DNA of 22,315 bases, taken from the NCBI GenBank assembly GCA_039815185.1, contig JBCBZT010000086.1:1-22315 (forward strand). Reading direction: 5' to 3'. The translations under genes were made by a program, and so were the position numbers. The DNA is from Cyanobacteria bacterium P01_A01_bin.123 (GTDB lineage Bacteria > Cyanobacteriota > Cyanobacteriia > Phormidesmidales > Phormidesmidaceae). Under the pieces are notes generated by a model. It was not told the DNA's origin, did no database searches, and worked only from the letters and a program-made list of their open reading frames with translations. Every line of letters starts with the position of its first letter. Within the stretch, counting starts at the first letter, position 1. Shown here piece after piece: positions 2,354-22,315 of the stretch.

Positions 2354-2370
2354 GGGCATCTACACGAGGC

Positions 2371-2424: not shown

Positions 2425-2449
2425 GAGCAAAATCTATTGAGATTTGAAC

Positions 2450-3013: not shown

Positions 3014-3063
3014 GGCAATTGGGGCACCTTTGCCCCTCCTATATCCCTTCACCCCAAAAAACC

Positions 3064-3387: not shown

Positions 3388-3562
3388 GCTGGCAACCGGG
3401 ATACGCATAGTACGGCTTGACGGCGAAATTCTAGCTTTCGCTGAGTGCTTAGGTACTGCTTTGGACTTCTGGATTGAGATCCATACGGATGGTGATCCGA
3501 AAGACGAGGTAACCATTTGGGCGGATGGATCTCTCGTTGCGACTACAAAAAAGTTGACTTAG
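3380..3562 (+). CDS. Small hypothetical phage protein (60 aa)
   Basis: GGAGGG RBS before ATG at 3380; 8-bp overlap with the upstream gene. Confidence 0.65.
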   Translation: MNELATGIRIVRLDGEILAFAECLGTALDFWIEIHTDGDPKDEVTIWADGSLVATTKKLT

Positions 3563-3595
3563 CAAACATAACCAGATCGAGAAATTGGTTGAGGA

Positions 3596-4561
3596 ATGGA
3601 TATTTTACAAGGATTAGAGTCGGGAAAGCTACGGCTTGGATCGCTCTGCAAACGAAAGCATGACTGGAATGGCACAGGACAAAGTGTAAGGCGAGTTTTG
3701 AAGGGCAGGACAGACGCGCCGTGCGTTGATTGCCAGAAGCTTACTCACTCTAGGTACACCAAGGCATTTAAGTCTCGGCTCAAGGGAAGGACACCTTCAA
3801 GCCTAGAAATTCAGCTTGGAGTTGACTGTCAAGCTTATTACCTGGGTAATTTGACTTGTGGTCATAACTATAAAGATTCGGGCTACTCGTTGAGGCGAAT
3901 AGGCAATAGGCAATGTGTTCAATGTGAATCTGAAAGAGTCAAGGAAAATCGTATTCGTGATCGAAAAAAGTTCTCGGATCGCGGTAAGGAATATTACGCA
4001 AAAAACAGAGAAGAAGTTTTGCGCCGTCAGAAAGAGTACTATTCCATACCTGAAAATGCAGACAAACGCAGAGAAGGTACTCGTGTAGCGACGCGAAAGT
4101 ATAGATCTTCTCTTGAATACAAAAACAAGTTAAATATTTACCGTGAGGCACGTCGGACACAGATCAGGGAGCGTAATCGGCAATATAAACGCACCAAAAG
4201 AGGAAAAGCCTGTCTGGCAAAAAGCAATCATCAACGAAGATGCAAAAAACTCAATCAGCATTTCTCAACATACTCAATAGACGAAATGATGGTTAGATAT
4301 GCTGAGTTTAAGGATCAATGCGCTTATTGCGGCAATATTTCTGCGATAGGCATTGATCACTTCATTCCGTTTACCCTTGGTGGTTCGGATGTTATTGGCA
4401 ATATTATTCCATGTTGTGAGTGGTGCAACTCTAGCAAGTGCAATAGCGATCCCTTTGAGTGGTATTCAAGGCAATCGTTTTATAAAAAGTCACGGTGGAA
4501 AAGAATTTTGAAGGTTTTGGGAAAGACCCAACGAAACTACATGCAAATACCATTGATTTAG
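3596..4561 (+). CDS. HNH endonuclease with two N-terminal Cys/His modules
   Basis: C-terminal CAYCG...IDHFIP...GG...NIIPCCEWCNSSK is an HNH motif. Basic helical linker. AT-rich and HIP1-free. Confidence 0.9.
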   Translation: MDILQGLESGKLRLGSLCKRKHDWNGTGQSVRRVLKGRTDAPCVDCQKLTHSRYTKAFKSRLKGRTPSSLEIQLGVDCQAYYLGNLTCGHNYKDSGYSLRRIGNRQCVQCESERVKENRIRDRKKFSDRGKEYYAKNREEVLRRQKEYYSIPENADKRREGTRVATRKYRSSLEYKNKLNIYREARRTQIRERNRQYKRTKRGKACLAKSNHQRRCKKLNQHFSTYSIDEMMVRYAEFKDQCAYCGNISAIGIDHFIPFTLGGSDVIGNIIPCCEWCNSSKCNSDPFEWYSRQSFYKKSRWKRILKVLGKTQRNYMQIPLI

Positions 4562-5484
4562 TTTTGCCAGCCTTTCGACAATGGTGCCAAGACCCTCTGA
4601 CTTGGGTTCCTCAAGGGATCTTCAGTCCATGCTTTATGACGCTTAGAAATACGAGGCATAACTGGACTCAAGACACTTCGGCAAGAAAAATGCAACGGTG
4701 GGCGATTAGCTTGAATCTGGTCTCCCTTTAAAATTAAACCGTTTCTAGATCGGCAAATATCAGTAGTTCGACTGTCATCAATCGAAAGAAATCGAAACGC
4801 CTCGACCAATTCTGATTGCTGTGCCGTAGCAATTCGCCCCGTGTTATAAGCAAAACCAGTTTCCGTTCTGGAAATATTGCTAGCCCGCGATCGCGATACG
4901 GTTAATGTCCGCTGAATTCGATCCAACAGTTGTCGTCTACTAATCGGCAGCCCGGTTGTGGGCTGCGGAACGATGGCGCTAACTAGATCAAGCTTGAGTT
5001 GGTTGAGCAAGTCGCGCGAGAAGTTGCCCGCGATCGCGATCACTCTATTCAACACTGCTGTTTGGGCTGCCGTGTTGAATAGTATTGCTGGTTGAAGCTG
5101 TAGCATCTGCTGAAGCGCGGCAGCAACTTCAGCACTGATAAATCGGGCAAAGTTTTGGGGTACGACTGATCGCATTTCAGCCAGCATGTCAATGCCGCCC
5201 AATTGATAGCCGCTCTCCCAAAGCTGATAGATGGGGCGTTGGAGCGCTCCGGAGAGTCCCCAGTCCAGCTCGTTAATTGCTTGGATATCTCCACGATCAA
5301 CTGCACGTAAGCCTTGAAACAGAACGCGATCGCCTTCGCGCTCTATCTCTGCCATCTGCCCCGCGATCGCTTGGTCTTCAACCCGATCCAACCCCGACTG
5401 GATATTCTCAAGCGGTATCAGTGGGACATCGTTGGGAAACGGCGTCTCGTTGAATAGGACAGCATCAAAAACCGAATCAATCAC
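4558..5484 (-). CDS. Phage minor head / head morphogenesis protein (Mu gpF, SPP1 gp7 family)
   Basis: RASNISRTETGFAYNTGR...DDSRTTDICRSRNG...PPLHFSCRS is the family signature. Confidence 0.9.
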   Translation of the reverse strand: MIDSVFDAVLFNETPFPNDVPLIPLENIQSGLDRVEDQAIAGQMAEIEREGDRVLFQGLRAVDRGDIQAINELDWGLSGALQRPIYQLWESGYQLGGIDMLAEMRSVVPQNFARFISAEVAAALQQMLQLQPAILFNTAAQTAVLNRVIAIAGNFSRDLLNQLKLDLVSAIVPQPTTGLPISRRQLLDRIQRTLTVSRSRASNISRTETGFAYNTGRIATAQQSELVEAFRFLSIDDSRTTDICRSRNGLILKGDQIQANRPPLHFSCRSVLSPVMPRISKRHKAWTEDPLRNPSQRVLAPLSKGWQN

Positions 5485-5960
5485 ACAGGTTCCAGATCGG
5501 TGAAAGTGAACGTGCCTCGGAGAAAAGGAATTGTGATAAATCCACCATTCCCCTGCACTTCAGCAAAGCGAGTTGTGGCTGAGTAACCACCGTTGCCTTG
5601 TATCTCAACACAGCGATCGCCAGTGTCGGTATATTCAGCAAGGGCGATCGCGATTTGTCGCGCTACCCAATTAAAACGTGCCGACTGCTGGGTTCTAGTC
5701 TTGACAGAAATAGGGAGGAAATAGTCAATATTTGCACTGCACTCTTCAGCTAATTCCCCTGAAAACGAAGTACGGTAAACCATCAGTGCGGGGAAATCAG
5801 TAGCTGTTTTGAGATCAGTTTGATGATCTGCCACAGAACGCACCACGACCAGAATGGGCAATTCTTCAGCGGTGTAATATTCCTCAGCTTTGCTATTGAG
5901 ATGTTCTCTGAGGTAAAGCGCGATCGCTCTAATTACCTCATCAGTGTCAGGATTGAGCAT
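5481..5960 (-). CDS. Putative tail terminator / tail completion protein
   Basis: 159-aa acidic protein with a FPALMVY strand, lying directly after the virion morphogenesis gene and coupled by overlaps. The function is inferred from position. Confidence 0.55.
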   Translation of the reverse strand: MLNPDTDEVIRAIALYLREHLNSKAEEYYTAEELPILVVVRSVADHQTDLKTATDFPALMVYRTSFSGELAEECSANIDYFLPISVKTRTQQSARFNWVARQIAIALAEYTDTGDRCVEIQGNGGYSATTRFAEVQGNGGFITIPFLRGTFTFTDLEPV

Positions 5961-6409
5961 TATTCATCAAGTGCTATAAGCAGTGTGGCTTCAACTTCTT
6001 CCAGTAGTTCATCATGGATAAAGATCATGGGGCGTTTTCGTTGCAACCCCCTTGCTTTCGGGAGCGCCGTCCCAAACTCAATTTCGTTTTTGCCTACGTT
6101 ATAGATTTGCCCATCTCCGGTGAAGCTTTGCTGTAGTTCTCCAGTGTCGCGCAGGACTTGCCCACCTTCCCGTCGCGGATTCGCCTTTAGGTAAGGATCG
6201 GTAAGCGCGGGCCAGTTTACCCCGCCATAGACCACGCCCCCAGCGCGAACCCTAGGAGCGCTGTTGAAGCGTTCATCTACATCAGCAACCAATATTTGCT
6301 GAATTGCTGCTTTGCGCTCTCTGAAATCACTGATTTTTGTAGCGGAATCAATGAGCGCGATCGCTTCTGTTAAACCCTCAATTGTGATTGCATTAGGAGA
6401 TGGTGCCAT
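5960..6409 (-). CDS. Phage virion morphogenesis protein (Mu gpG / P2 gpS-like neck protein)
   Basis: ERFNS...WPALT...LRDTGELQQS...IEFGT...KRPMI pattern. Confidence 0.8.
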   Translation of the reverse strand: MAPSPNAITIEGLTEAIALIDSATKISDFRERKAAIQQILVADVDERFNSAPRVRAGGVVYGGVNWPALTDPYLKANPRREGGQVLRDTGELQQSFTGDGQIYNVGKNEIEFGTALPKARGLQRKRPMIFIHDELLEEVEATLLIALDE

Positions 6410-7107
6410 TACGGTCTAGGAATGAATGTGTAGGATGTGGTGACAGTATTTGACTGTGGTTCAGTTTGACCAATTTCAAGAGAAGTAATCCACTGAAGCG
6501 TGTAACGCTTTGTCTGATCTGTTAAAACAAATGCAAACGATTCTTCATCCGACGGATCATTCAGCACAAATTGTGATTCTAGAATCAAAACTTGGGTATC
6601 AAAATCACGCACTTGTATGACAAATCGCCACCTTGGAGCCCCTGGATCTGGAGCGTTATAAACCACTCGTAAGGATGAACCACCAAATTCAAAAGAACGA
6701 TATGCCATCACGCCATCACCGCCCTCACCCGATTGGCTCAGGGAAACAGTAGCACTCCTAGGTAAGCCCTCATCTAAAGTCGCGACATCCGGCCAGTCCA
6801 ATAAATCAAACTGCCAGTCATTAATCCAACGAAAAAATGCTGTGCGATCGCGCTGCCTACCCTGTCTGTTTTGAATTTCTCTGCCCGCGATCGCGTTTGG
6901 AGCCAACGGCGACAAAGCTAACCACCCTTGCTGAGTTTGAAATAGGGTGCACTCCCCAGGGGGGACAGTGCCACCGCAAGTTGCTCTGATAGGCGATCGC
7001 CCATTCACGCGCACACTGATTTGTTGCCCAGTGTTTCCACCCCCTGGCGATCGCCCATTCAGGACCGACTGGGCTTGTGCGATCAGTTTTGCTAGTGCAT
7101 CCTCCAA
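6409..7107 (-). CDS. Hypothetical phage structural-region protein
   Basis: The 232-aa ORF fills the operon gap. Only a TTG start is available, one codon after and in frame with the upstream TAG. Confidence 0.7.
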   Translation of the reverse strand: MEDALAKLIAQAQSVLNGRSPGGGNTGQQISVRVNGRSPIRATCGGTVPPGECTLFQTQQGWLALSPLAPNAIAGREIQNRQGRQRDRTAFFRWINDWQFDLLDWPDVATLDEGLPRSATVSLSQSGEGGDGVMAYRSFEFGGSSLRVVYNAPDPGAPRWRFVIQVRDFDTQVLILESQFVLNDPSDEESFAFVLTDQTKRYTLQWITSLEIGQTEPQSNTVTTSYTFIPRP

Positions 7108-7110
7108 AGC

Positions 7111-7902
7111 CTAAAACCCAAACACTGTTTGCAAATCATCAACCAAGGTGTTGAAATTGGAAACTTGTGTGGCATCCCATCCACTAGCCAGCCCCATCAT
7201 GGCAAGCTGGCGGCTCGACACATCGGTGGCTGATCCAGCTCTGTTTTCTGCCCCAAAATACATGTTGAGAGATGGGGGAGCGACGCTGCTCTCGGACGCA
7301 GATTGCGACAGAGTTCCGTCCCTGTAAAGAGCATGGGTAGAACTGGATGTGCGGCTAACTACCCACAACCCAGTAGAGTCGGTTATGTTTGATGTGGTTT
7401 CGGCAGTCCCGCTAATGTTAATGCCCCAACGCGCTTGGTTAGCACTAGTGCGTGTCAGGTTTGTCGAGAAATCAGATGGGCTACCCCCATCGTTAATACC
7501 AAATTCACGGCTCGTAGATTGAGAGTTAGTGCGGCTGTAATAGAGCGCCAGCGCGGAATTTTGAGCCCAATTTCCGCCCGCTGTTACTGGGTTAAAGCCA
7601 GTGTTAATTGCCCCGGTAATGCCCTGCCCCGCCACATGGGCGCCGCTGATATTAGATCCGGTAAAGCTTGTGCCTTTGATGTTCAGCAGAGCATCGGTGA
7701 TGTTGTCGAGGAAATTTAGGTAGATCAGATCAATGGTGGTGTACAGCCCATCAGCCTTTAGCCCTACAAAAAAGGCATTGATCGCATCTAGCTCAGCCGT
7801 TGAGTAGGATGCGGTGAGCCTACCTATAAAAGCTTGAGCATCAGCATCAGTTGCGCCGCCGCTGCCCTGAGACGCGATCGCGCCATGTCGCATAACGAGC
7901 AT
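7111..7902 (-). CDS. Putative tail-associated protein with a LamG/concanavalin-A-like domain
   Basis: N-terminal DADAQAFI...AINAFFVGLKADGLY, then beta-rich GLWVVSRTSSSTHALYRDG...MYFGA typical of LamG-like folds. Coupled to the tail fibre gene. Confidence 0.6.
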   Translation of the reverse strand: MLVMRHGAIASQGSGGATDADAQAFIGRLTASYSTAELDAINAFFVGLKADGLYTTIDLIYLNFLDNITDALLNIKGTSFTGSNISGAHVAGQGITGAINTGFNPVTAGGNWAQNSALALYYSRTNSQSTSREFGINDGGSPSDFSTNLTRTSANQARWGINISGTAETTSNITDSTGLWVVSRTSSSTHALYRDGTLSQSASESSVAPPSLNMYFGAENRAGSATDVSSRQLAMMGLASGWDATQVSNFNTLVDDLQTVFGF

Positions 7903-10900
7903 CAGCTAATCCCCCCAGCTAGCCACCACTCATCAGTGCCGATTTTCCAAAGAGTTGCCAACGACCATTGACCGCTAAGCGCGATCGCGGTATTCGCCCC
8001 ATTGATATTGACACCACTAGCAGGCGTAACCGTCACAGTGCCCGCGCCCTTCTGTCCTATCAGGATTTGAGTCCCGACAGGAAAAGTCGTCGTCGCGTTG
8101 TCTGGCAGGTTGAGCGTGATTGGTGATGCGTTGTTGAGCGTCACACCTTTGAACCTATCGGCTAACACCAGGGTGTAACTGGTGCCAGTTTGAGCATTCT
8201 CAACCAGTACTGTTTGAGCAACCTCGTAGGTATCGCCGTTGTTCTCTTGTCTCCATTTGAGAACGTCGCCATTGTTGAAGACCTTTACTTCATCCGTTGC
8301 AGTACTGGGATCTGAGACTTGTTCTTGCAGCACCAATGCACTTGCCGCCGTAACAGCACCAGTTGCACCTGTTGAGCCTTTGATGGCAAATGCCATCCGA
8401 ACGGCATCACCATCGGTAAAGCTGCCGTTGTTGCCAGATGGGTTTACTCCGTATGTGCGATCGCTGCCGTTGTCCGTAATGCTTGAAACTTCAAAGGTTG
8501 CGTAAACTGTGGAGTCGTTTGATTTAATGACTTGTATTGAAGATCCGGCAGTTAGCAGGTTGAGGATCCCGGATGCGTCAATACTATTGGTGTCAGACTC
8601 GTGAACATAAAGTTCTGTCGCGCTGGCTGGGCTAGCGTTATTCCAGCGAATCTCCCCACTAGCGGGGGTTGCGGTTGTTGCTGAATCAAAAGTGTAGTCA
8701 ATCCCAAACCCTGATACCCCATCGGCACCGGTTGCGCCAGTAGCACCGGTTGCGCCAGTGGCACCGGTTGCACCAGTCGCGCCTCGCAAGGTTGGGGTTA
8801 GAAGGACTGATTCAGTATCAACAAAGGTTCCGGTGTGGCTGAGGTATGTAACCGGAACGGTGCGATCGCTGCCGTTATCAACAACTGCCCCACTAACCTG
8901 AAAGTAGGCGTACTCATTGTCGTCAGTCCGGCTACGCAGCGTGATGATCGAAGTATCCTCAACCACTGCCAGGATGGCTGATATATCAACACTATTGGCA
9001 TCCGTCTCGTTGACGTAGATTTCTGTCACAGACGCGATCGCGGCGTTATTGAGCCTTAGCTCTCCAGTTCCCGCCCCTGCTGTTGTGCCAGTATCAAAAG
9101 CATAGACAAGCCCAAACCCGTCCACACCGTTGGGGCCCCGCAAGTTGCCCTGGAGTGTCCAAGTGGTCTCACCAGTCTTTTTGTAATAGTCGCCGTTTGT
9201 GGTGTTGAGGTAGAAGTCTCCGACTTTCCCCAAGCTCCCTGCCGGTGCCCCAGTGTTTGAGTACCAGGTTGAAGCCTGGGTGATCTCCGCCAAAGTTACA
9301 GCGATCTCTTCAATCCAGTCGCTGGATTCTGACTCGTGTTGGATTTGGGTAACTTGGTTGCCATCGTGGACATACGCGATCGCGACCCGATAGTTATCCG
9401 CAGTCAGATCACTGCTGCCTGCATTGGCTGTAAAGCTACCGCTGGTTGGTTTGAACAGCCCGAAGGTTGAGGCGATAGTGGGCAGGTTCGCGATCGCGGT
9501 CCCAGCAGACAGATTACTGATCACAACTTGCTGGGTAGCTGTGTCAGTGACGGCATTACCGTCAAACTCCCACAGTTGCCCATCACCTTCCCGTTGCAGA
9601 TAAACCACAAAATTAGGCGGGTTGAAGACTGCCTCAGTGTTGCCCGCGATCACACTAACTGCTGTACTGGGCTCAGGGTAGTCAGTTCGTATATCTCGCC
9701 CGTTGGTGACGGTTACGGTGAGCGTTTGCCCACTGGTTACCGCGGCATAGCTAGAGAAATCTGAAGCAGGCGATCGCCCCGAGAGAGTCCCCACCTTTGC
9801 CCGGATCGCTTCATTAGCGCCGATAGTGCCGTCACCGACAAATATGTTGCCGTTGCCGTTCACCTCAATAATCTGATCAGCGGTGTTGGCGGTTAGCCCA
9901 GTGACTGCGATCGCGTCCTGAGACGGAAACGACAGTCGTCCCACAGCAGCGGAGCCGGATAAAGCCTTGACGGATAAGCCCGAGTCGGGCACTACCCGAA
10001 GGCGATCGCCGATCGGGAATATTCCGTTTCCGGTGAAGCCTGAGACTGGGTTAACGTCCCCAGACTGACTAAACGATCGGGGGATAACGCTGATTTTTGA
10101 GTCATCAGCAACGTCTTTCAGTTGAGCGCTATTGAACTTGGCTTGAACACTGAACTGTGCTGCTTGCCCAGCGGGTAAATCCTTCTCCAACGCGATCGCG
10201 CCTGCTTTGCCAAACGCAAAAGGGGCAGATCCCCCCGTTGTCATGCCAGAGGTATCAAGGGCTCCAGTAGTTGGATCAACATAGCCATCAAAGGTGATCT
10301 GCAGCAGCCCGTCAAATTGAGAGGTTTTATCAACCCCGTCATCAAACACCCTAAAACCAATGCGGGTACCTTGTGGCGTAATTGCCCCTGCTGCGTTGCG
10401 GGTGCCATACCACCAATACTTGACGGGAGTGTGAAGAGAACCGTCGGCGGCATAGGTGGGAGCTTGAAGAACTGCGGATGGTGGGAGCTGGTTTAGAACG
10501 CGATCGCTTCCCCCTGCATTCTCAGTGTTGCTGACATAGGTGCTAAAGCTGCCTACCTGTATCCAACGTCCTGTAGCTGCGGTGAATACGGTGTCATTGT
10601 CCACAGTGGCAACGCTCTCGGCATCGTAGCGAAGAATCCGCCCCGAGCTGTCGCCGATGTCGGTTACCTGCCGGATTATGCCGTTGATCAAGTCAGCCCC
10701 AGTGGGCAGGTTTGCCAGGGCTGCTACGGTTTGCCCAGAACCGACAACAATATGAGCGTCTTCAGTTAGTTCAATGGTGGCAGGAAGCGATCGCGGCGTT
10801 ACCTGATCAACATCAAACCCTTTATAGATGGCAACTTGGCGAATGCTCGTCAGATCACCTGATGACGTAGCAATGCTGATTACATACCAGTGAATATCCT

Positions 10901-11120
10901 CACCAGCGGCGCGGGCTGTGGCGGGAATGGTGACTTGAATCTTTTGCCCAGCAGTATAAGCAACTGATTGCAGAGAGGTAGGGAGGTTGAAGCCTGCCCG
11001 GTTGCGCCCTTGGATCGAGAGCTCAACGGTACCTGATCCGGTGAGGTTACCCCCTGCTACTGCTGCAATGGTTGGTGCTGGTAACTGCGATCGCAGTGAA
11101 GCAAAAGTAGCTAATCCCAT
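7902..11120 (-). CDS. Tail fibre / receptor-binding protein with a collagen-like segment
   Basis: 1072 aa, G/T/A/S-rich. Contains GAPAGSLGKVGDFYLNTTNGDYY, a (GAT)6 collagen run and a C-terminal QTGTSYTLVLAD...FPVGTQI..QKGAGTVTV...DEWWLAG domain of the kind seen in phage fibres. Confidence 0.82.
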   Translation of the reverse strand: MGLATFASLRSQLPAPTIAAVAGGNLTGSGTVELSIQGRNRAGFNLPTSLQSVAYTAGQKIQVTIPATARAAGEDIHWYVISIATSSGDLTSIRQVAIYKGFDVDQVTPRSLPATIELTEDAHIVVGSGQTVAALANLPTGADLINGIIRQVTDIGDSSGRILRYDAESVATVDNDTVFTAATGRWIQVGSFSTYVSNTENAGGSDRVLNQLPPSAVLQAPTYAADGSLHTPVKYWWYGTRNAAGAITPQGTRIGFRVFDDGVDKTSQFDGLLQITFDGYVDPTTGALDTSGMTTGGSAPFAFGKAGAIALEKDLPAGQAAQFSVQAKFNSAQLKDVADDSKISVIPRSFSQSGDVNPVSGFTGNGIFPIGDRLRVVPDSGLSVKALSGSAAVGRLSFPSQDAIAVTGLTANTADQIIEVNGNGNIFVGDGTIGANEAIRAKVGTLSGRSPASDFSSYAAVTSGQTLTVTVTNGRDIRTDYPEPSTAVSVIAGNTEAVFNPPNFVVYLQREGDGQLWEFDGNAVTDTATQQVVISNLSAGTAIANLPTIASTFGLFKPTSGSFTANAGSSDLTADNYRVAIAYVHDGNQVTQIQHESESSDWIEEIAVTLAEITQASTWYSNTGAPAGSLGKVGDFYLNTTNGDYYKKTGETTWTLQGNLRGPNGVDGFGLVYAFDTGTTAGAGTGELRLNNAAIASVTEIYVNETDANSVDISAILAVVEDTSIITLRSRTDDNEYAYFQVSGAVVDNGSDRTVPVTYLSHTGTFVDTESVLLTPTLRGATGATGATGATGATGATGADGVSGFGIDYTFDSATTATPASGEIRWNNASPASATELYVHESDTNSIDASGILNLLTAGSSIQVIKSNDSTVYATFEVSSITDNGSDRTYGVNPSGNNGSFTDGDAVRMAFAIKGSTGATGAVTAASALVLQEQVSDPSTATDEVKVFNNGDVLKWRQENNGDTYEVAQTVLVENAQTGTSYTLVLADRFKGVTLNNASPITLNLPDNATTTFPVGTQILIGQKGAGTVTVTPASGVNINGANTAIALSGQWSLATLWKIGTDEWWLAGGIS
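8718..8783 (-). repeat. 9-bp collagen-like (Gly-Ala-Thr) repeats
   Basis: GGN GCN ACN x6 followed by GGT GCC GAT GGG on the minus strand. Confidence 0.9.
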
Positions 11121-11193
11121 GTACCCGCTTGAATGCTGGGGTTAGGATGCCTGACTGTGGATTTAGTTGACAAAGCGAGGTCTAATGACCAAC

Positions 11194-11222
11194 TTAGTGG
11201 AATCGTTTAACGATTCCACTAA
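11194..11222. repeat. Perfect 29-bp palindrome between the endolysin and tail fibre genes
   Basis: TTAGTGGAATCGTT-t-AACGATTCCACTAA: 14-bp arms, no mismatch. Confidence 0.9.
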
Positions 11223-11232
11223 AGCGATCGCG

Positions 11233-11988
11233 CTAATATGACCAGCGCGCCCGATACCCCCGCGCATCAATATGGGTAAAGGTGTTAGAGCTGGCTAGCC
11301 CGCCCCGGTTACCCCACCACGGATTGAGGCGCTTATAAACATCTGACGGGTGAATACCACGGACGACAAAATCAACAGCATCACCGGACAAGTGACGCGA
11401 TCGCGAGGCACCACCCACCCTTTGATTGGTTACCGGATCTCGGTACCAAGAATTGACGGTAATAGGGCGATCGCCTAGCAAAGCTCGAACATCCTGCATC
11501 ACTTTGGCGATCCGAATCATGCCATTAACAACATCGGCGTTGACAGGAATGCGATCGCCGCCGTGCGTTGCTTCACCCCATGTGAAATTGCCGTTTGCAA
11601 TGATGGGGTGATGGATATAGTAAACACCTTGAAAGCCAGGAAATTCAAGCGCCTTACCCTTTGGCGTTGCTTCAGGTGGGACGTCAGTTGGATTATTGTC
11701 AGGTTCCTTGCCGATAATTTCTACTGCGTCTTCCTGATTGTAGAAATACCAGTTATGAAATCCCGCGATCGGTTGAACCACAGAAACAAGGACGTGGTTC
11801 CCTTCAGGCTGATCCCAGTGGATATCTAATTCAGTACCAGCAGATAGCAATACCTTTTGATCGTCTGGCAGTTGTGTCGAATCTACCGCACCCCGCTTAG
11901 CCCATGTATCCCAGTTGAGTTTGATTTTCATGGTCGCGTTAAGCTCTGCGGTTTTAGGGTGCACAAACGCGATCGCGGGTTTTGACAT
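11233..11988 (-). CDS. Peptidase M15A (Zn D-Ala-D-Ala carboxypeptidase fold), probable endolysin
   Basis: PITVNSWYRDPVTNQRVGGASRSRHLSGDAVDF...FTHIDARG contains the SxHxxGxAxD and HxD motifs, preceded by an extra N-terminal domain. Start uncertain (11994, 11988 or 11931). Confidence 0.9.
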   Translation of the reverse strand: MSKPAIAFVHPKTAELNATMKIKLNWDTWAKRGAVDSTQLPDDQKVLLSAGTELDIHWDQPEGNHVLVSVVQPIAGFHNWYFYNQEDAVEIIGKEPDNNPTDVPPEATPKGKALEFPGFQGVYYIHHPIIANGNFTWGEATHGGDRIPVNADVVNGMIRIAKVMQDVRALLGDRPITVNSWYRDPVTNQRVGGASRSRHLSGDAVDFVVRGIHPSDVYKRLNPWWGNRGGLASSNTFTHIDARGYRARWSY

Positions 11989-12114
11989 CTGCAAGTTCCA
12001 GTTATGAAGCTTCTGTGAAACGCTTGCGATCGCGCTTGGGATTTGCCATATTTGCTATAGAAAGTTTCGGGTTACCTCAAACCCGTCCGACACATCAAAA
12101 CAAGGATTTTCACA

Positions 12115-14248: not shown

Positions 14249-14933
14249 CCGAGATGAATGCCGTGAGGTGCTGCTGTTTGCGCTCCAAAAGTGTGGTGAG
14301 AAGTACAGCTTTAAGCTCTATGCCCTGTGCATTATGAGCAACCATGTCCATTACCTGCTCGAACCCCAACAGCCTAAGGACTTGCCCCTGATTATGCACT
14401 GGCTCAATTGGTATACTGCCATGTACTTCAATCGGATGCTGAACCGCACGGGACACTTTTGGGAAAAGCGTTACCACAGCACAGGGTTTCCGATCGGTGA
14501 TAAACGCCGTGCCTTAAACACGCTGCGCTACATTCACGCCAATCCCAAAGCAGCCAATATGCAACAGGGCTTTTTCTACGACTACAGCAACTACGGCAGC
14601 TATGAACGGCTGAGCAATGATGGCTTGACCCAATGGCACCCAGCTTTTTTAACCTTGGGCACCACACTGGAAATTTGTGCAGCAGCTTACCGGAGGTTTT
14701 GCCCGAAATATAAGCCGAAGCCAAAGCCAGAGAAGCGTAACCATTGGGGTAGCAAGCTTCTAGCGCAGATCAAAGCCAGGAGTCGTCTGAAGAAGAAGGG
14801 CGCTCCAGGGCAGAAGTCTTTGTGGGATGACTGGAATGCGCCTGAGGCAGAGATCCGCAAGGTTGCAGAGAAATTTGTGTTAGCCAATTGCTTTAATCCA
14901 GACATTGCCCGCTTAAGGTTTGAGCCGCCCTAG
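14244..14933 (+). pseudogene. REP-associated (RAYT) / Y1 HUH transposase, N-terminally truncated
   Basis: Motifs LYALCIMSNHVHYLL (HUH), GHFWEKRYHS and LRYIHANP. The frame extends upstream as LIRDECREVLLFAL, but the usual N-terminal YH(I/V)xxR strand and an ATG start are missing. Confidence 0.8.
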
Positions 14934-15013
14934 CGAAGCGGTGCCAGGTAACGGATCTCGCAAAGGCAGGTAAATCGTGTAAAAAGCAAGCGTTTACAAA
15001 CTTTAAGAAAATC

Positions 15014-17311
15014 CTAGGACTGGCTCGTGCTACAGTTCACAAGTCTCTGTGCGAGAGAAGAGAACCAATCCCAACCCCAAACCCCCAACATCGGTAATTC
15101 TCCTGTGGGAGAATGATGGAGATCCGCTTTTAGGTCTGAGGAGCCCACAAAATCCTCTCCATTTTTCCAGCCGACGCGATCGCAGAATTCTCCCCAGATC
15201 TTATCAAATGGGTACTTTAGGTACTCGCCATCGAGGGTAGCACCACAATCGACATAAATTTGCTTTTGTACGCTGAAGCCAAACTTGCCCTTGCTGTACT
15301 TTACCCAAAGTCCATCGATCGCTTTCAGGTCTTCGCAGGGAAAGTTCAACAGGTCGTCTGGATCAAACCACTGCCCCTCTTCTTTGCCCACAGTGGTAAT
15401 CATCAGCCGATAGGTCTCTTGGTCGGCTTCCTTCCATTGCTGGGCCTTGAGTAGGTCTTTTAAGGTTTGATACTTTGAGTCTTGGGTAACAGCACTCAAT
15501 CTTTGCAACGTGGCTTTCAGCTCATCGCTCAGTTTTTCAGGCCGAGGATATTCTTTCAGGCAAGCATCAGCCAAATCCGCTGCTTCACTGCCCTGTTTGC
15601 AGGCTTCAAGAATTACATGGTTCAGTAACCTAGGCGTGAGCTGGGCCGTGTAAAGCAACGCGGTTTCGCGCCAGATGGCACCAGTCCAGTTTTGCAACAC
15701 AAGCTGGATGCTATTCTGCCTGCTCGCTTTGTCTTCAGGTTTTGCCAATAGCGTTGCTGTAAAAAAGCCTTGAAAACTTGCATGGGGAAACTCATATTCA
15801 CCCGGTTCTCGTTCAACTAATAGTTCGCTGACTTCGACAATTTGCTTGAGCCAGTCTTCTGGGGCAACTTCTTCGTCCTGTAAACGTGACTGTTTTTGTA
15901 AGAAGTTCAGCAATCCTGAGCTAGACACGGTCAGTCGATTGGCCTTGACCATGCCAAAGGCTATCAATTGCAGCAGGGCCATGTTTTTCTCAAAGGGCAG
16001 CAGCATCTGAATCAGTCGTGCCCTAGGGCGATCGTCAAGCTGGAGCTTGCAGATGCCCTGATACAGCCCAAGGCGTTGGCGAGGCAGTTTGGCAGCGGGA
16101 TCGTAGCGGTGAAAGGTGACCAGCATGTTGAGCAGCAATGGATTCTCGGCCATGTAGCCCAGTTCACCTCGCCGCTGTTTTAGTTGGCTGATCAGGCTGT
16201 CTGAACGTTCCTGAGCCACTTCTTGAGCACGTTGCCGCTGTTTTTCGCTACGGCAACACCGTTCCTGACACAAATACCATCGCCTAATAAAATCCTCTTG
16301 CTGGGCTGGGGTGAACTTATTGATGTAGATAGGGATGGCAGGTTTTTGGGCGGTGTAGTCTTTGTAGCCTGCCGGACGCGAGGTAAGGATGAATACTGAC
16401 TGGGCATATTCCTTCATCTGGGCACTCAGCCATTTACTTACATCGGAGCGTTTATCGGTAGGCAATTCATCAAACCCATCGAACATTACTAGAGCTTTAC
16501 CTTGTTGCAACAAAGTTTCTGCCCAGGCTGGAGGTGGAGTGAGGGGATGATTTTTGGAGAGGCTGGGGATATAACACTCAGCGATCAGCTGAGGCAAGCT
16601 GGGCGGTTTGGCCTGAGTGAGTTCGTCTGTCCAGTCGCGCAGGCGCAATAACACGGGCAAAAGCGTGGGCGCATGATAGGGGCGCTGCCGCTGTTTGCGT
16701 TGGCCATAGATTAAGGTAATGTGTCGCAGCAAAGTGGTTTTGCCCATACCTCCCTTGGCCAAAATCACCATTTGCCGGAATTTGCGATCTTTGCGTGATC
16801 TAGCCAGTAGCTTCCAAATGTCTAAGTTTTCAGACATCAGGCTGGGGTCGCGCGGATTGCGCATATCTGCCAGTGCACCACTGCTCAACGCACCGCTCAA
16901 ATCCAGTGGGACAAATACCTCTTCTAGTAGAGGAATAGCAGTATGGTCAGGGTTGAAGCCTTCGACAGTGAATTCTTCGCATAGGCGGGCTTGCTGTTGA
17001 AGGTATAGCCCGGTCGTGTCTGAGCGCAAAGCTGACCAACTATTGAGGAGCGATCGCTCGGTGGTGTTAATCCCTGCTGTGAGTAGCTTCTCTAACTTGG
17101 GTACAAGGATTTTGCCTGCTTTGATACCTATCCAAACGCCAGCAGCCCCAGCAAAGCACCAGAGCGCTTGTTGCCAGTCCCCTACTCTTACCGCGTTTAC
17201 TCCCACAGCACTGATGGCTCCAGGCAACCCAAGCAAAACCAGCCTTTGATCAAGTAGCTCAAAGACTTTCTCAACTGTCGTGGGTGTATGAGTTGGCGGT
17301 TCTTCAGCCAT
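15014..17311 (-). CDS. NACHT NTPase with N-terminal membrane hairpin and C-terminal GUN4 domain
   Basis: Walker A AKGGMGKTT, Walker B LVMFDGFDE, ILTSRP, NPLLL. GUN4 motifs LLKAQQWKEADQET, FPCEDLKAIDGLW, GKFGFSVQKQIY, FCDRVGW, GELP. Start set at MAEEPP (17311). Confidence 0.92.
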   Translation of the reverse strand: MAEEPPTHTPTTVEKVFELLDQRLVLLGLPGAISAVGVNAVRVGDWQQALWCFAGAAGVWIGIKAGKILVPKLEKLLTAGINTTERSLLNSWSALRSDTTGLYLQQQARLCEEFTVEGFNPDHTAIPLLEEVFVPLDLSGALSSGALADMRNPRDPSLMSENLDIWKLLARSRKDRKFRQMVILAKGGMGKTTLLRHITLIYGQRKQRQRPYHAPTLLPVLLRLRDWTDELTQAKPPSLPQLIAECYIPSLSKNHPLTPPPAWAETLLQQGKALVMFDGFDELPTDKRSDVSKWLSAQMKEYAQSVFILTSRPAGYKDYTAQKPAIPIYINKFTPAQQEDFIRRWYLCQERCCRSEKQRQRAQEVAQERSDSLISQLKQRRGELGYMAENPLLLNMLVTFHRYDPAAKLPRQRLGLYQGICKLQLDDRPRARLIQMLLPFEKNMALLQLIAFGMVKANRLTVSSSGLLNFLQKQSRLQDEEVAPEDWLKQIVEVSELLVEREPGEYEFPHASFQGFFTATLLAKPEDKASRQNSIQLVLQNWTGAIWRETALLYTAQLTPRLLNHVILEACKQGSEAADLADACLKEYPRPEKLSDELKATLQRLSAVTQDSKYQTLKDLLKAQQWKEADQETYRLMITTVGKEEGQWFDPDDLLNFPCEDLKAIDGLWVKYSKGKFGFSVQKQIYVDCGATLDGEYLKYPFDKIWGEFCDRVGWKNGEDFVGSSDLKADLHHSPTGELPMLGVWGWDWFSSLAQRLVNCSTSQS

Positions 17312-17420
17312 AGCAACTAATCCGCAGGTTGAGGTGTTTAATCTTACTCTCTCAGTTTTATCCCAAAGAAGAATGAACTGTTCTGATCTAAGGGATTGAG
17401 CTTCAGGCACTTCATAACCC

Positions 17421-17546
17421 CTACTCCCCCACAAAGAACTGCCGATCCCCTCCCTTCCCCTGAAACCGCTGATCCAAGTACCCCAACATCTCCCGTGGCA
17501 GCTTCTTGGTGACATGAGCACTCGGCTCCTCAACCCAGCACTCGCC
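17421..17546 (-). pseudogene. C-terminal 41-codon fragment of a second phage antirepressor
   Basis: Translates as GECWVEEPSAHVTKKLPREMLGYLDQRFQGKGGDRQFFVGE*, 26/41 identical and ungapped against the end of the 766-1557 protein. In-frame TGA just upstream; no start codon at its 5' end. Confidence 0.9.
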
Positions 17547-17605
17547 AACTCAGCCTTGCTATGCCATAAAGGGATAAAATCCCTACCCCATTCCCATGGC
17601 AGATC
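17541..17605 (+). promoter_or_regulatory. Shared leader module, copy 1
   Basis: ctcgccaac.tca.cc.tg..tatgccataa.ggga.a.aa.ccc.acc...tcccATGGCAGATC, similar to 19822-19889. Confidence 0.7.
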
Positions 17606-19764
17606 TGCTGTTGACTGCGCTGCTAGCCCAAGCTAACTCAAATACCCCACCACCAGATCCCACTAAGACAGAGCAAATCCTCGAATTCCTTAACCAAAAC
17701 CCACTTATAGGTTGGGGGATTGCTGGGTTTGCTGTAATTGCTATGGCTACCGCTGCAGTTGCTGCTTGGACAGGCAATCTGGGCAAGATTATCGAGTTCA
17801 TCCGCAACTACCTTGTCCCTACGAAAGCAGAGATCACCGATGAAGTACGCCAAAAGCTGCGGCGACAGCTCATTGAGGTTGTCCTTGAGCAGGTAGTGAT
17901 CCGGTTAGATAGCTCTCTGCATTACAAGGTACGGATGGACTTGAAGCGGGAAGAACAACGTCAACGGGTGGGACGGCGTGATTTACCCCCTGAACAAGAG
18001 GACTCACCACCAGATGACTTAACACCTGCTCGTATCTTCGATCCCTTCAATCCATCTACACCACCAGAACCTATTAAGCCTGATAAATCGACTTTAGAAC
18101 TCTTTGAACGCGAGGATATCCAAGGACGCTTACTGATTTTGGGTGAACCTGGCTCTGGCAAAACCAATGAGTTGCTAGTACTTGCTAAGGGACTCCTACA
18201 CAAAGCCCAACAAGACCCAGACTTCCCTATTCCTATTATCTTTGAGCTGTCAGAGTGGACAAATGAGATTGCCTTTGACAAATGGTTGAGTGCTCAGCTT
18301 TTGGAGAAATACACCGTTCCCAAAGAGGTCTCCCAGCATTGGATTCAGCAGAATCAACTACTGCCGTTGCTCGATGGCTTGGATGAGCTGAGACGGGTGG
18401 ATGGGGCTGATGCATCGACACCCGAGGAAATTAAAGCGCGTCGAAGGGCTAAGCAGATCAAGTGCATTCGGGCCATCAATGCGTTTCTCGATATGCACTT
18501 GATGCCATTAGTGGTGTGTTGTCGGCGCAAGGAATATGAAGCCCTAGAAGCCGAGGATGAATTTTTGAAGCGCTTGAATGGGGCTATCTACCTACAAGCG
18601 TTAGACGATAGCCAGATTGAGACTTACTTTCAGCAGTTGAACCGTACCCCCCAGTGGGGAGCGCTTAAAAGTCAGCCTGAGCTGTTGGAGTTAGTCCGCT
18701 CTCCACTATTCCTGCTCATGTTGGTGGTGGCTAATCCTAGTCAACCGATTACAACTGTAGAAGCGTTGCTAAATACCTATATCAACAAGCAGCTCCTTGA
18801 TTTGAACAATCAAGGGGCTTATCCTCCAGGGCAGGCTCCTAGCCCAGAGCAAACGCGACACTATCTGGCTTGGCTGGCGGGGAAATTGGAGGCTGTAGGT
18901 ACAACGGAGTTTTTGATTGAGTGGTTGCAGCCATCTTGGTTGGATAGACAACGCGATCGGATTTTCTATCGCTGGATGGTCGTGCTGAGTGTTGGGCTGC
19001 TTGGCGGGCTGAGTGTCGGGCTGATTTTCGGGCTGCTTGTCGGGCTGCTTGTCGGGTTGCTTTTCGAGCTGCTTTTCGGGCTGCTTTTCGGGCTGAGTAG
19101 CGGGCTGCTTATGGGGCTGATTGACGGGCTGAGTGATATCAAACTATCAGAAGCCTTGAATTTATCATGGCGAAAGTTTTTGCGTTTTGGGCTGCTTGTC
19201 GGGTTGCTTTTCGGGCTGCTTGTCGGGCTGCTTTTCGGGCTGAGTAGCGGGCTGAGTAGCGGGCTGCTTTTCGGGCTGCTTTTCGGGCTGAGTAGCGGGC
19301 TGAGTAGCGGGCTGCTTATGGGGCTGATTTTCGGGCTGCTTATGGGGCTGAGTGGTATTGAGGTTGATTTGGGTAGCAAGAAATATCCAAATCAAGGAAT
19401 TAAACAATCAACGAAGAATGGGCTGCTTGTCGGGCTGCTTGGCGGGCTGCTTGGCGGGCTGCTTATCGGGCTGAGTGTCGGGCTGAGTGTCGGGCTGAGT
19501 GTCGGGCTGCTTATCGGGCTGAGTCTCGGGCTGAGTCTCGGGCTGCTTGTCGGGCTGCTTTTCGGGCTAGATGCTGCGCTTCAACACTTAATCCTACGCC
19601 TAGTACTCTATTATCGGTCAGGTGTTAGCCCATGGAACTATGCAAAGTTCCTCGAACATGCCGAAAAGCATCGCTTCATCCAGCGTGTTGGGGGACGCTA
19701 TCGCTTCATGCATGATCTGCTACGAAAGCACTTCGCTAGTCTGGAGACGCCATCTGCTGGATAG
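17596..19764 (+). CDS. NACHT NTPase with an N-terminal TM helix and C-terminal Gly/Leu-rich membrane repeats
   Basis: Walker A GEPGSGKT, Walker B LPLLDGLDE, SPLFL, FLIEWLQPSWL, (GLxx)n blocks and C-terminal PWNYAKFL...QRVGGRYRFMHDLLRKHFA. Confidence 0.92.
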   Translation: MADLLLTALLAQANSNTPPPDPTKTEQILEFLNQNPLIGWGIAGFAVIAMATAAVAAWTGNLGKIIEFIRNYLVPTKAEITDEVRQKLRRQLIEVVLEQVVIRLDSSLHYKVRMDLKREEQRQRVGRRDLPPEQEDSPPDDLTPARIFDPFNPSTPPEPIKPDKSTLELFEREDIQGRLLILGEPGSGKTNELLVLAKGLLHKAQQDPDFPIPIIFELSEWTNEIAFDKWLSAQLLEKYTVPKEVSQHWIQQNQLLPLLDGLDELRRVDGADASTPEEIKARRRAKQIKCIRAINAFLDMHLMPLVVCCRRKEYEALEAEDEFLKRLNGAIYLQALDDSQIETYFQQLNRTPQWGALKSQPELLELVRSPLFLLMLVVANPSQPITTVEALLNTYINKQLLDLNNQGAYPPGQAPSPEQTRHYLAWLAGKLEAVGTTEFLIEWLQPSWLDRQRDRIFYRWMVVLSVGLLGGLSVGLIFGLLVGLLVGLLFELLFGLLFGLSSGLLMGLIDGLSDIKLSEALNLSWRKFLRFGLLVGLLFGLLVGLLFGLSSGLSSGLLFGLLFGLSSGLSSGLLMGLIFGLLMGLSGIEVDLGSKKYPNQGIKQSTKNGLLVGLLGGLLGGLLIGLSVGLSVGLSVGLLIGLSLGLSLGLLVGLLFGLDAALQHLILRLVLYYRSGVSPWNYAKFLEHAEKHRFIQRVGGRYRFMHDLLRKHFASLETPSAG
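18982..19568 (+). repeat. Three blocks of 12-bp tandem repeats, GGGCTG(CTT/AGT/ATT)NNN, encoding GLxx
   Basis: Blocks at about 18982-19135, 19189-19352 and 19420-19568. Confidence 0.92.
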
Positions 19765-19821
19765 ACGCCATCCCTCCCCAAGCAAACTCCTCAGCAAATA
19801 ACCCCAAAACTCCACTCCACC

Positions 19822-19889
19822 CTCGCCAACCTCACCCTGCGTATGCCATAACGGGACAGAACCCCACCATTCACCTCCCATGGCAGATC
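19822..19889 (+). promoter_or_regulatory. Shared leader module, copy 2
   Basis: ctcgccaacctcaccctgcgtatgccataacgggacagaaccccaccattcacctcccATGGCAGATC. Confidence 0.7.
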
Positions 19890-20338
19890 CGGTTACCCTC
19901 ACCGTTGGCAGTATTGCAGCCCTCGCCTTCATCAAGTTCATCGAAACCAGCGCAGGTGAAAGCGCCAAAAAACTCACGCCCGCTGTCCTTAGCAAAATCG
20001 ATACCCTGCGCCAGAAGATCTGGGCCAAGTTAAAGGGCATTCCTGAAGTCGATGAACTCAATGCCACGGCTGAACAAGGCGGCAAAATCACCGAGGAAAA
20101 AATCAAGCTGCTGACGCCTCGTTTGGAAGCAGCAATGAAAACTGACGATGCTTTTGCTCAGGAAGTCAGAGCACTGGCGAGTGAGATCGATCAGGAAATC
20201 AATATCGGTGAGATCCTGGGTCGCAACATTCAGAACATCTATGGGGGGTCTCCGGTTCAAATTAATGACCCCAATGCGCCTGTGTTTACGGGAGATATCA
20301 GCGGCGGCACATTTAACTTTACGACCAACAACTATTAG
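19880..20338 (+). CDS. Bell-like (helical, membrane-targeting) effector domain with a C-terminal N/G/Q-rich amyloid-like motif; in frame with the downstream NB-ARC-TPR region
   Basis: MADPVTL...hydrophobic helix...AGESAKKL...LRQKIWAKL...LEAAMKTDDAFAQEVRALA, then NIQNIYGGSPVQINDPNAPVFTGDISGGTFNFTTNNY. The Bell assignment is by pattern only. Confidence 0.7.
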   Translation: MADPVTLTVGSIAALAFIKFIETSAGESAKKLTPAVLSKIDTLRQKIWAKLKGIPEVDELNATAEQGGKITEEKIKLLTPRLEAAMKTDDAFAQEVRALASEIDQEINIGEILGRNIQNIYGGSPVQINDPNAPVFTGDISGGTFNFTTNNY

Positions 20339-22315
20339 CTCCAGCCGTCCGACTCGGCACGGACAAAGCTAACGCCGCCCAACAACATCCCCCGCAAAGG
20401 TACTCAGCACTTCGTCGGTCGTGACGAGGACTTGCAACACCTCCACACGCAATTGCAGCAGTCTCAGCAGGTGGCGATTACGGCCATTGCAGGCATGGGC
20501 GGTATTGGTAAGACAGAACTTGCTCTGCAATATGCCCGTAGTCATTGGCAGCAACATTACCCCGGTGGCGTGTGTTGGCTAGAGGCACGGGATCAAGATA
20601 TTGCGACTGGGATCCTGGGCTTTGCTCAGGCATGGTTAGAGTTAATCCCATCTGATGAACTGCCTGTGAAGGAACGAATTGCCTACTGCTGGCGCAACTG
20701 GCCTGACTTTGGCGATTCTCCCGCAGCAGCCTTGGTGGTCATTGATGATGTAAGCGACTACAAAGCCATTGAAGACTATCTGCCTACCCAAGCGCGCTTC
20801 ACTCTGCTGTTGACTACACGAGCACAAAGACTAGCAGCAACCGTTAAGCCCTTTGCCATTGAGGTATTGAGTGAAGAAGCAGCCTTGGAGCTGTTGACGC
20901 AGCTTACAGAAGACCCTGAGCGCATTGATGCAGAGTTGGAGCAGGCCAAGGCGCTTTGTCAGTGGCTGGGGTATCTTCCCTTGGCTCTGGAGTTAGCGGG
21001 GCACTACCTAGCTCGCAAGCCTACCCTCTCCCTGGTGGACTTTCAAGTGCGCTTAAAGGCTCAGGAACTGGCTGCTCGTGCCCTGGCTAAAGCTGAGTCG
21101 GGGATGACCAATGCTCAGGGGGTTGCTAGTGCCTTTGAGTTGAGCTGGCAAGACCTGAGTGAAGATGCTCAGACGCTAGCCTGCGTTCTCAGTTTGTTTG
21201 CCCTTGCCCCGATTCCCTGGTCTAGGGTTGAAGCGTGCTTGCCCAATGTTGACTCAGAAGACCTAGAAGACCGCAGAGATTATCAGCTCTGCGGGTTTAG
21301 TTTGCTTCAGCATGTGGAAGAGGAACGCTATCAATTGCATCCCTTGATTCACCGTTTCATCCGCACCAAGCTGGCTGACGATTCACCGTTGATTTCAGCC
21401 TACTGTGGGGTGATGGTCAAAGCTGCCCAAGAAATGGATGAAACCCCGACCCTAGCTCAGGTTGCAGCATGGCGTGAGATGGTACCTCATGTGGCAGAGG
21501 CAGCGATTCAGTGGGTATCCAGGGTTAGCAATGAGGATCTGACATGGCCCTTTACCGGGTTGGGACGGTTCTACCAGGGTCAAGGGGTCTATGCCCAAGC
21601 CGAAGTCTGGCGGGAGTGCTGTGTCACGGTCACTCAAGCGCGTCTAGGGCATGAGCATCCCGATGTGGCCAAGAGTCTGAACAATTTGGCCCTTTTATAC
21701 TCGGAACAAGGCCGCTATGGAGACGCCGAACCCCTGTTCTTGCAAGCCATCGACCTCGGTAAAGCCAGCCTGGGCGATGACCATCCCGATGTGGCCACGA
21801 GGCTGAACAATTTGGCCGGTTTATACCAGTATCAAGGCCGCTACGCGGAGGCCGAACCCCTGTTCTTGCAAGCCATCGACCTCGGTAAAGCCAGCCTGGG
21901 CGATGACCATCCCTATGTGGCCACGAGTCTGAACAATTTGGCCACTTTATACCGGGCCCAAGGCCGCTATGGAGACGCTGAACCCCTATTCTTGCAAGCC
22001 TTAGAGATGACTAAAACCAGCCTGGGTGAAGCCCATCCCGATGTGGCCACGAGGCTGAACAATTTGGCCACTTTATACCAGGCCCAAGGCCGCTATGGAG
22101 AGGCCGAACCCCTGTTCTTGCAAGCCATCGACCTCGGTAAAGCCAGCCTGGGTGAAGCCCATCCCGATGTGGCCCTGAGTCTGAACAATTTGGCCAGTTT
22201 ATACCGGGCCCAAGGACGCTATGAAGAAGCCGAACCCCTGTTCTTGCAAGCCATCGACCTCGGTAAAGCCAGCCTGGGCGATGACCATCCCGATGTGGCC
22301 ACGAGTCTGAACAAT
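20339..22315 (+). CDS. NB-ARC (STAND) NTPase with TPR array; not in the ORF track; open to the window end; either a readthrough product or a nonsense-split pseudogene
   Basis: Manual translation of frame +2 shows no stop: PNNIPRKGTQHFVGRDEDL, GMGGIGKTELALQYA (Walker A), LVVIDDV (Walker B), LLTTR, LGYLPLALELAG, FELSW, YQLHPLI, then TPRs. Confidence 0.9.
21656..22315 (+). repeat. 126-bp tandem repeat array (TPR units), more than 5 copies, running off the window
   Basis: catccc(g/t)atgtggcc starts at 21656, 21782, 21908, 22034, 22160 and 22286. Confidence 0.95.

Follow-up and report, generated by a model that had tools for sequence, protein, structure and literature searches.

Bell/BASS-NLR systems are the closest described relatives of the locus analysed here. 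In them, a short helical effector carries a C-terminal N/G/Q-rich motif (bacterial amyloid signalling sequence, BASS) and adjoins an NB-ARC/NACHT-TPR receptor in cyanobacteria; in the accessible text of Dyrka et al. (bioRxiv 10.1101/2020.01.06.895854), such motifs are also reported on TIR, CHAT, and alpha/beta-hydrolase effectors, and the Bell effector is defined as a protein of about 120–140 amino acids (aa) whose N-terminal helix is hydrophobic and whose residue 2 or 3 is acidic. Bab/Agp of E. coli, with a Bell-related effector, activation through a shared amyloid motif, and abortive infection, may serve by analogy as the functional model (accessible text of bioRxiv 10.1101/2024.11.07.622273). 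On the side of translation, gag-pol of Moloney murine leukaemia virus (MoMLV) has a stop codon, an 8-nucleotide (nt) spacer, and an H-type pseudoknot starting at +12, and gives two products with a common N-terminus in a fixed proportion (PMC13517186, the part with Table 1). The locus described here lies at the end of contig JBCBZT010000086.1 of Cyanobacteria bacterium P01_A01_bin.123 (assembly GCA_039815185.1), and the whole stretch of 22,315 nt is referred to as the window. It encodes a Bell-type effector and an NB-ARC-TPR receptor in one frame, separated by a single TAG. Programmed, structure-stimulated readthrough of this stop by a near-cognate tRNA, giving a free effector and a rarer effector-receptor fusion, is the preferred explanation, with a probability of about 0.8.

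The window covers contig C85 completely; the genome has 8.09 Mb and is 99.99% complete. The open reading frame (ORF) at 19880–20338 on the forward strand encodes 152 aa and ends with AAC AAC TAT TAG, and 659 further codons stay open in the same frame up to the contig end. NB-ARC (PF00931, E = 6e-15) and TPR_12/TPR_10 repeats were recognized there by Pfam, which is the architecture of an NLR-like STAND receptor. The initial annotation, made from the sequence alone, had described the TAG as interrupting one continuous frame directly behind the N/G/Q-rich segment, with no ATG, GTG, or TTG ahead of the conserved PNNIP..FVGR, and this description holds: the earliest in-frame starts are TTG at 20432, GTG at 20471, and ATG at 20495 (inside Walker A), all past PNNIP..FVGR and inside the NB-ARC entry. 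A contig of run X1 with depth 40 covers 19845–20572 including the TAG with 0 differences, evidence that is not independent because X1 may be the source run of the assembly. Contigs of X2 and X3, from another study and from diverged relatives, begin at 20311 or 20320, and none of the 40 listed differences is at the TAG (395 others are unlisted). Paralogues on contigs C10 and C35 of the same genome likewise have TAG-CT with NB-ARC in frame behind, and named relatives are cyanobacteria. The TAG at 20336–20338 is genuine and no lesion.

The arrangement recurs in many genomes. When 61 genomes were searched with the effector, 52 matches were obtained, every one in an open frame of 61–211 aa. In total, 288 loci were gathered, with weaker matches partly included; an effector match was present in 235, and 213 entries were non-redundant. 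Eight of these were left out (four fused, three short, one cut), and the remaining 205 were classified by gene architecture alone, the RNA signal not being used. Loci with at least 100 open codons after the stop and no ATG within 30 codons were designated readthrough-type (85); 67 were two-gene loci, and 53 others. One junction-spanning query among the searches enriches the readthrough-type class; with the effector profile alone (180 loci), the numbers are 67, 62, and 51, respectively, and these readthrough-type loci come from 54 genomes of 11 families. The independent recurrence of the in-frame stop, one of the checks proposed in the initial annotation, is thereby found. The stop is TGA in 63, TAG in 21, and TAA in 1 of the 85 loci, while TAA is found in 24 of the 67 two-gene loci. 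Between 37 disjoint neighbour pairs, the stop type differs in five and always remains a stop.

The frame behind the stop usually encodes NB-ARC or NACHT. Walker A was found in 79 loci, in 75 of them 48–67 codons past the stop, and 74 of 79 NTPase frames stay open for at least 300 codons or to the locus end. Signal-bearing loci have the receptor in frame 0 and two-gene loci mostly in offset frames. A Shine-Dalgarno sequence was identified in 3 of 85 readthrough-type loci, but also in just 6 of 55 two-gene starts. Purifying selection on the downstream domain, the second check, is also found: the median dN/dS (ratio of non-synonymous to synonymous substitution rates) of NB-ARC is 0.22 (68 loci, 156 pairs with dS 0.1–1), with one pair at 1 or above, and between the window and C10 dN is 0.097 and dS 0.66. 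On contig G004:C155 (loci L003, L140, and L141), three near-identical effector copies lie within 11 kb, one of them interrupted by TAG inside the match.

The two classes differ sharply in the motif. The effector tail is copied on the downstream protein in 1 of 85 readthrough-type loci versus 47 of 67 two-gene loci (47 of 62 once five signal-bearing or signal-like loci with an early ATG are removed). The two-gene class thus consists of exactly the described Bell/BASS-NLR pairs, whereas the readthrough-type receptor lacks both a start and a copy of the motif and follows, in frame, a stop and a conserved RNA structure; the matching motif on the N-terminus of the adjacent NLR, by which a BASS pair is recognized, is confined to that single locus of the 85. 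As the receptor has no copy of its own, in the readthrough-type class the motif would reach it by readthrough only, and the two layouts appear as alternative routes for the motif onto the receptor. The screen of Dyrka et al. demanded paired motifs in adjacent genes, as described in its accessible text, so it would pass over this class; that text makes no mention of a stop codon, readthrough, in-frame, or pseudogene. Bab/Agp differs in being two genes, with a TPR-GreA/B-PIN receptor and a BASS11 motif, and the accessible part of that paper does not mention readthrough or a stop codon either.

Two-gene loci L183 and L046, whose receptors have their own ATG and motif, keep a cassette-encoded ERERVKxNPP-like peptide behind the motif; possibly these peptides are relics of conversion between the two layouts. 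In seven other two-gene loci (L008, L010, L017, L028, L144, L157, and L213), the second gene opens with a short helical segment, e.g., MADELVQKLKQL, before the motif, which is a different receptor N-terminus.

The signal behind the stop is known in 152 junctions (more than 150 sequence variants). Its consensus has CT directly after the stop and a spacer that is 8 nt long throughout. Stem 1, of 5 bp, starts at +12 and closes a loop of 8 nt; behind a 9-nt linker rich in A comes a tract able to pair with the loop (stem 2). C is at +4 in 81 of 85 readthrough-type loci, 16 of 67 two-gene loci, and about 21% of 3139 long ORFs in the window's genome. Stem 1 (at least 4 of 5 pairs, register fixed) occurs in 76 of 85 readthrough-type versus 7 of 67 two-gene loci, and stem 2 (at least 3 of 4 pairs) in 62 of 85 versus 12 of 67, with some compensatory pair types. 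In 70 aligned junctions preselected on stem 1, 92% of the cells of the pseudoknot are paired, changes on both sides occur in 100 cells (26 when shuffled), and covariation is 0.507, compared with 0.220 shuffled and at most 0.13 in slid registers. Codon 3 after the stop is NCG in 81 of 85 loci. Across 156 pairs, the 13 signal codons have a lower synonymous difference than NB-ARC (0.20 vs. 0.38) and a higher non-synonymous one (0.23 vs. 0.13), and the constraint therefore acts at the RNA level. Rfam gave only two chance-level matches in 19700–20700 (E 1.9 and 5), neither on the signal and none over the gathering score. Stop-hopping was rejected, as the same residue is on either side of the stop in 6 of 152 junctions, and a slippery heptamer is present in 1 of 152. 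In eight loci (L198, L304, L310, L312, L313, L314, L449, and L450), the stem-1 loop is 3 nt longer with the frame and the second stem kept, and several of them precede NACHT-type receptors.

An alternative helix, P0, would cover the stop by pairing it with linker bases. Its complementarity in the 152 junctions is 81% versus 23–53% in slid registers, but P0 is unproven because its columns hardly vary; by geometry, it would exclude stem 2. That the cassette is a switch between this stop-sequestering hairpin and the knot, regulating receptor dose, seems rather doubtful.

With these data, the leaky amber codon of the initial annotation can be refined. The layout read there as one gene with two products recurs in 85 of the 205 loci, but neither the restriction to amber (TGA is the commoner stop in the family) nor plain leakiness was kept, since a dedicated 3' RNA element is present. 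That annotation mentioned neither the RNA structure at 20347–20377 nor the prevalence of TGA.

In a held-out test, a covariance model of the signal recovered exactly the three known loci in the window's genome and gave 36 matches in 28 of 151 genomes. Twenty-nine of the 36 were inspected, 20 of them new, and all 29 have a stop, an open in-frame ORF, and Walker A; the model matched 25 of the 79 loci from the junction-spanning query. A pattern permitting TGG as the sole sense codon at the stop position was used on metagenomes and gave at least 116 stretches, of which 80 were taken and 73 were non-redundant. Among the matches listed, the frame is open in 51 of 73 (48 TGA, 3 TAG) and closed in all 8 matches with TGG, and the upstream domain is the same effector family in 46 of 53. 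The pattern had 0 matches in viral contigs. TIR, CHAT, and alpha/beta-hydrolase are the other effectors found upstream of the cassette, and downstream are NB-ARC, NACHT, CHAT, and a few unclassified ORFs, with HEAT among relatives. Fusions are rare, with two longer homologues in 2984 candidates, although this search was weak. The signal, about 45 nt with leaky stop, spacer, and pseudoknot, is likely a portable cassette for recoding at the 5' end of cyanobacterial NLR modules, usable behind any effector (Bell, TIR, CHAT, alpha/beta-hydrolase); it would let one gene give effector and effector-receptor fusion at a set ratio and would replace the duplicated amyloid motif.

In locus L305, the domain ahead of the cassette (885–1391) has 169 aa and matches nothing in Pfam or PADLOC; the same cassette follows, with TAG, and then NB-ARC. 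In L184, L187, L193, L133, L173, and L196, stop-CT is followed by in-frame short or membrane-like ORFs without NTPase, some with decayed stems; in loci of this kind, an effector module may be joined by readthrough to non-NLR sensors. L321, a TIR/TPR pair of Acaryochloris, does not belong to the readthrough type, as its frame shuts after 26 codons.

Cultured strains have the arrangement as well: Nostoc PCC 7120 on pCC7120gamma (RS01205/RS01200), and Acaryochloris marina MBIC11017 on pREB4, pREB5, and pREB8. The RefSeq starts of all three such receptors inspected are ATT, ATT, and ATC. In the readable part of the PMC8557916 supplement, the PCC 7120 effector is represented by a possibly non-unique 8-residue peptide (two of five search engines) and the receptor all8062 by a modified peptide with a posterior error probability of 0.023, 1401 codons past the stop. 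This weakly suggests that both parts are translated in PCC 7120, and readthrough is not demonstrated thereby. Probably about half of the NLR loci of this effector family (67 readthrough-type vs. 62 two-gene) are mis-annotated as two genes with invented starts, and for this reason their signalling domains are hidden from surveys.

Several results weigh against readthrough driven by a pseudoknot. In the 37 neighbour pairs, pairing of stem 1 survives 19 of 20 double changes but that of stem 2 just 8 of 17, and for this reason, as judged from sequence comparison, stem 1 is taken as established and the H-type pseudoknot as probable. Slid registers of stem 2 still pair at 43–60%; under nested folding, the median probability of the central pair in stem 1 is only 0.18, and the fold at the window's own locus has z = -1.79. 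Kin among the loci are not independent, so the contrasts between classes overstate significance. The stop is not absolutely required, as there is a sense-codon fusion, P0001, with the linker kept and no stop (60% identity over the junction, two members, no TPR match), and a fusion without the cassette, L252. Motif sharing is not the sole use of the cassette, since the cassette-bearing TIR/hydrolase effectors L294, L360, and L403 have no evident amyloid-like tail by eye. Three junction peptide strings were not found in the readable PCC 7120 proteomics supplements, which do not cover the main peptide table.

If readthrough operates as proposed, the majority of ribosomes would terminate behind the amyloid-like tail, setting the Bell-type effector free. 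The compact pseudoknot starts 9 nt past the stop, which is a weak one (U-UGA/UAG-CU); a smaller share of the ribosomes, paused by this knot, would decode the stop with a near-cognate tRNA and go on to translate the NB-ARC-TPR receptor, so that the fusion would have the identical motif near its N-terminus. By analogy, the TPR array would sense a ligand such as a phage product, upon which the receptor would oligomerise and nucleate the motif. The nucleated motif would then convert the more abundant free effector into amyloid, with membrane-directed, abortive cell death as the toxic and antiphage outcome. Such activation would follow the Bab/Agp model.

The alternative with the most in its favour is translational coupling, in which re-initiation at a near-cognate codon past the stop would produce a separate, motif-less receptor and the RNA structure would tune re-initiation. 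In 36 of 85 loci, CTG or GTG directly follows the stop, and a near-cognate or internal start is within 28 codons in 80 of 85, both of which count against readthrough; separate coding sequences with ATT/ATC starts are given in RefSeq, and the PCC 7120 receptor peptide fits both explanations equally. The first codon in the other 49 of 85 loci is CTA, CTC, CCA, CCG, AAG, CTT, or ACA, with no common start codon. Re-initiation needs no frame 0, yet signal-bearing receptors are in frame 0. It leaves unexplained the near absence of TAA and the way in which a receptor without the motif would signal to an effector that has retained it. Re-initiation is considered improbable.

Very improbable is A-to-I editing of the mRNA, by which UAG or UGA would become a Trp codon, with P0 presenting the stop to a deaminase. 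TAG and TGA are one A-to-G change from TGG and the rare TAA two, the stop is able to pair in P0 with the complementarity given above, and editing-mediated readthrough has a fungal precedent (accessible part of PMC13123824). P0 is, however, nearly without covariation, and the best-covarying element is 8 nt downstream at a fixed distance, like signals acting on the ribosome. The motif of bacterial TadA is UACG, and it is absent at the stop.

A pseudogene, recent nonsense mutation, or sequencing error, the simpler explanation offered in the initial annotation, agrees with the existence of P0001, with the 5 of 79 readthrough-type NTPase frames that end before 300 codons, and with a few broken signal-bearing loci (L134, L220), but it is excluded at the level of the family, as 54 genomes of 11 families have the stop at one and the same domain boundary, with three stop codons, and purifying selection and a dedicated conserved signal speak against it. 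Next to no weight can be given to selenocysteine, pyrrolysine, a suppressor tRNA, or a reassigned code: a hairpin behind UGA does resemble the layout of a bacterial selenocysteine insertion sequence (accessible part of PMC7026636), but that recoding is for UGA only and goes with SelA and tRNA-Sec, and here the same signal is behind TAG as behind TGA. In the window's genome, no SelA and no tRNA-Sec over the cut-off were found (PylS was not searched for), no CTA or TCA anticodon is among 60 tRNAs, about 34% of long ORFs terminate with TAG and about 26% with TGA, and there are two genes for release factors.

Among readthrough signals, the element resembles that of MoMLV in layout. MoMLV is a eukaryotic virus with a 50-nt knot and UAG-G context (accessible part of PMC13517186), whereas the present signals are in bacterial chromosomal and plasmid genes, with a knot of about 31 nt and UGA/UAG-CU; no homology is claimed. 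The UGA-CUA or +4 C leaky context is shared with alphavirus-type readthrough, Qbeta coat A1, and B. subtilis sacB (accessible parts of PMC7026636 and PMC13517186). The alphavirus element is a long stem-loop, however, and Qbeta has no listed downstream structure (PMC13517186, same part), and none of these three signals is a portable cassette over many loci of an immune family. Orthologous in-frame prokaryotic stops with dN/dS below 1 have been claimed to be read through (PMC7918605); the worked example in its accessible text is a shallow TAG/CAG polymorphism, and NB-ARC, TPR, NLR, and cyanobacteria are unmentioned in that text. The initial annotation knew of no description of the arrangement, and none was found in the open-access literature searched, which omits most subscription papers. 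If readthrough is true, the recoding element would be an addition to NLR-amyloid signalling, and in the same literature a retrovirus-like readthrough pseudoknot in cellular bacterial genes was not found described.

Table 1. Features of the readthrough locus and of the contig start in the window.
Feature	Position	Strand	Basis or remark
Bell-type helical effector domain, about residues 1–107	19880..20200	+	hydrophobic N-terminal helix, Asp at position 3; AlphaFold2 helical bundle
N/G/Q/I-rich C-terminal tail, putative BASS-type amyloid signalling motif	20201..20335	+	low pLDDT; tails of homologous loci in published BASS sets
In-frame TAG, proposed readthrough site	20336..20338	+	TGA/TAG/TAA stop kept in 85 loci
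8-nt spacer CTCCAGCC, +4 C, +5 U context	20339..20346	+	+4 C frequency, position table
Stem 1 hairpin with 8-nt loop; 20347–20351 with 20360–20364	20347..20364	+	pairing, covariation
Stem 2, probable H-type pseudoknot; 20355–20358 with 20374–20377 over 9-nt A-rich linker	20355..20377	+	weaker than stem 1
Possible alternative helix P0; 20335–20340 (covers stop) with 20367–20372	20335..20372	+	complementarity kept, covariation scarce, unproven
NB-ARC NTPase, Walker A 20492–20515, in frame with effector, without own start or motif	20423..21031	+	PF00931
TPR sensor array, truncated by contig end	21551..22315	+	Pfam
TPR tail at contig start	1..627	+	may be the end of this gene or of C10 paralogue

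By their sequences, the effector and receptor proteins belong with Bell/BASS-NLR systems. The effector begins with M-A-D-P (family consensus MxEP), so the acidic position 3 of Bell is present. Bell domains are five-helix bundles that target the membrane and cause cell death; the AlphaFold2 model of the window effector is all-helical at 9–113 (mean predicted local distance difference test, pLDDT, 69.8; predicted template modelling score 0.58), and pLDDT is below 50 for residues 112–152. Fold searches with two AlphaFold2 models gave best Z scores of 5.2 and 5.4, none above background, and solved structures, searched by profile, had no match with E below 0.026. No Pfam family was over the cut-off on the window effector, with no Bell model among the matches, and no family was common to more than 3 of 138 effectors. 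Cyanobacterial clusters were obtained in ESM Atlas, with HetE-N as a single, unconfirmed lead in 14% of members. The tails of the 85 loci contain 14.9% N, 11.2% Q, 11.2% G, 7.8% I, and 7.0% V. Those of readthrough-type loci L319 and L323 (BASS9) and L083 (BASS7) are found verbatim in the accessible PMC8086366 supplement, and the window's own tail resembles a BASS2 entry there, by eye only.

A quick tree of 151 effector cores has the two layouts intermingled, with 27 changes, at least 12 of them forced by starred branches, against a shuffled mean of 49; the count is inflated because early-ATG signal-bearing loci are mislabelled as two-gene, and many forks are open because the tree has 115 columns only. 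The window effector is about 61–63% identical to the two-gene effector L003 and 48% to the C10 effector, while the receptors of the window and C10 are 75% identical. This closer relationship of the receptor to C10 suggests that the cassette travels together with the receptor.

The TPR tail at 1–627 has a 15-nt in-frame overlap with the contig end at 22301–22315, and the C10 paralogue, with 90.8% similarity to this tail, also stops at a contig end. The overlap may mean that the contig is a circular element of 22 kb or that the assembly broke within TPR repeats. No promoter-like or terminator-like sites were found in 19600–20600. The region 766–11994 is prophage-like and encodes an antirepressor, HNH endonuclease, head morphogenesis protein, neck-like protein, 1072-aa phage-family protein, and M15 endolysin; no capsid, terminase, or integrase was recognized in the ORFs scanned there. 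A small defence-like cluster at 14268–19764 consists of an IS200-like transposase, a NACHT-GUN4 protein whose GUN4 part matches PADLOC PD-T4-6, and another NACHT protein that has a long membrane region of GLLFG-type repeats.

As a putative natural, short, and structure-dependent bacterial readthrough signal, the element could be used for studying the competition of 3' structure with RF1/RF2. If the proposed readthrough is true, the effector-to-receptor ratio would be set in the mRNA, and the motifs of the two partners could not drift apart, because one copy serves both. Translational recoding would then be a design principle of bacterial NLR immunity.

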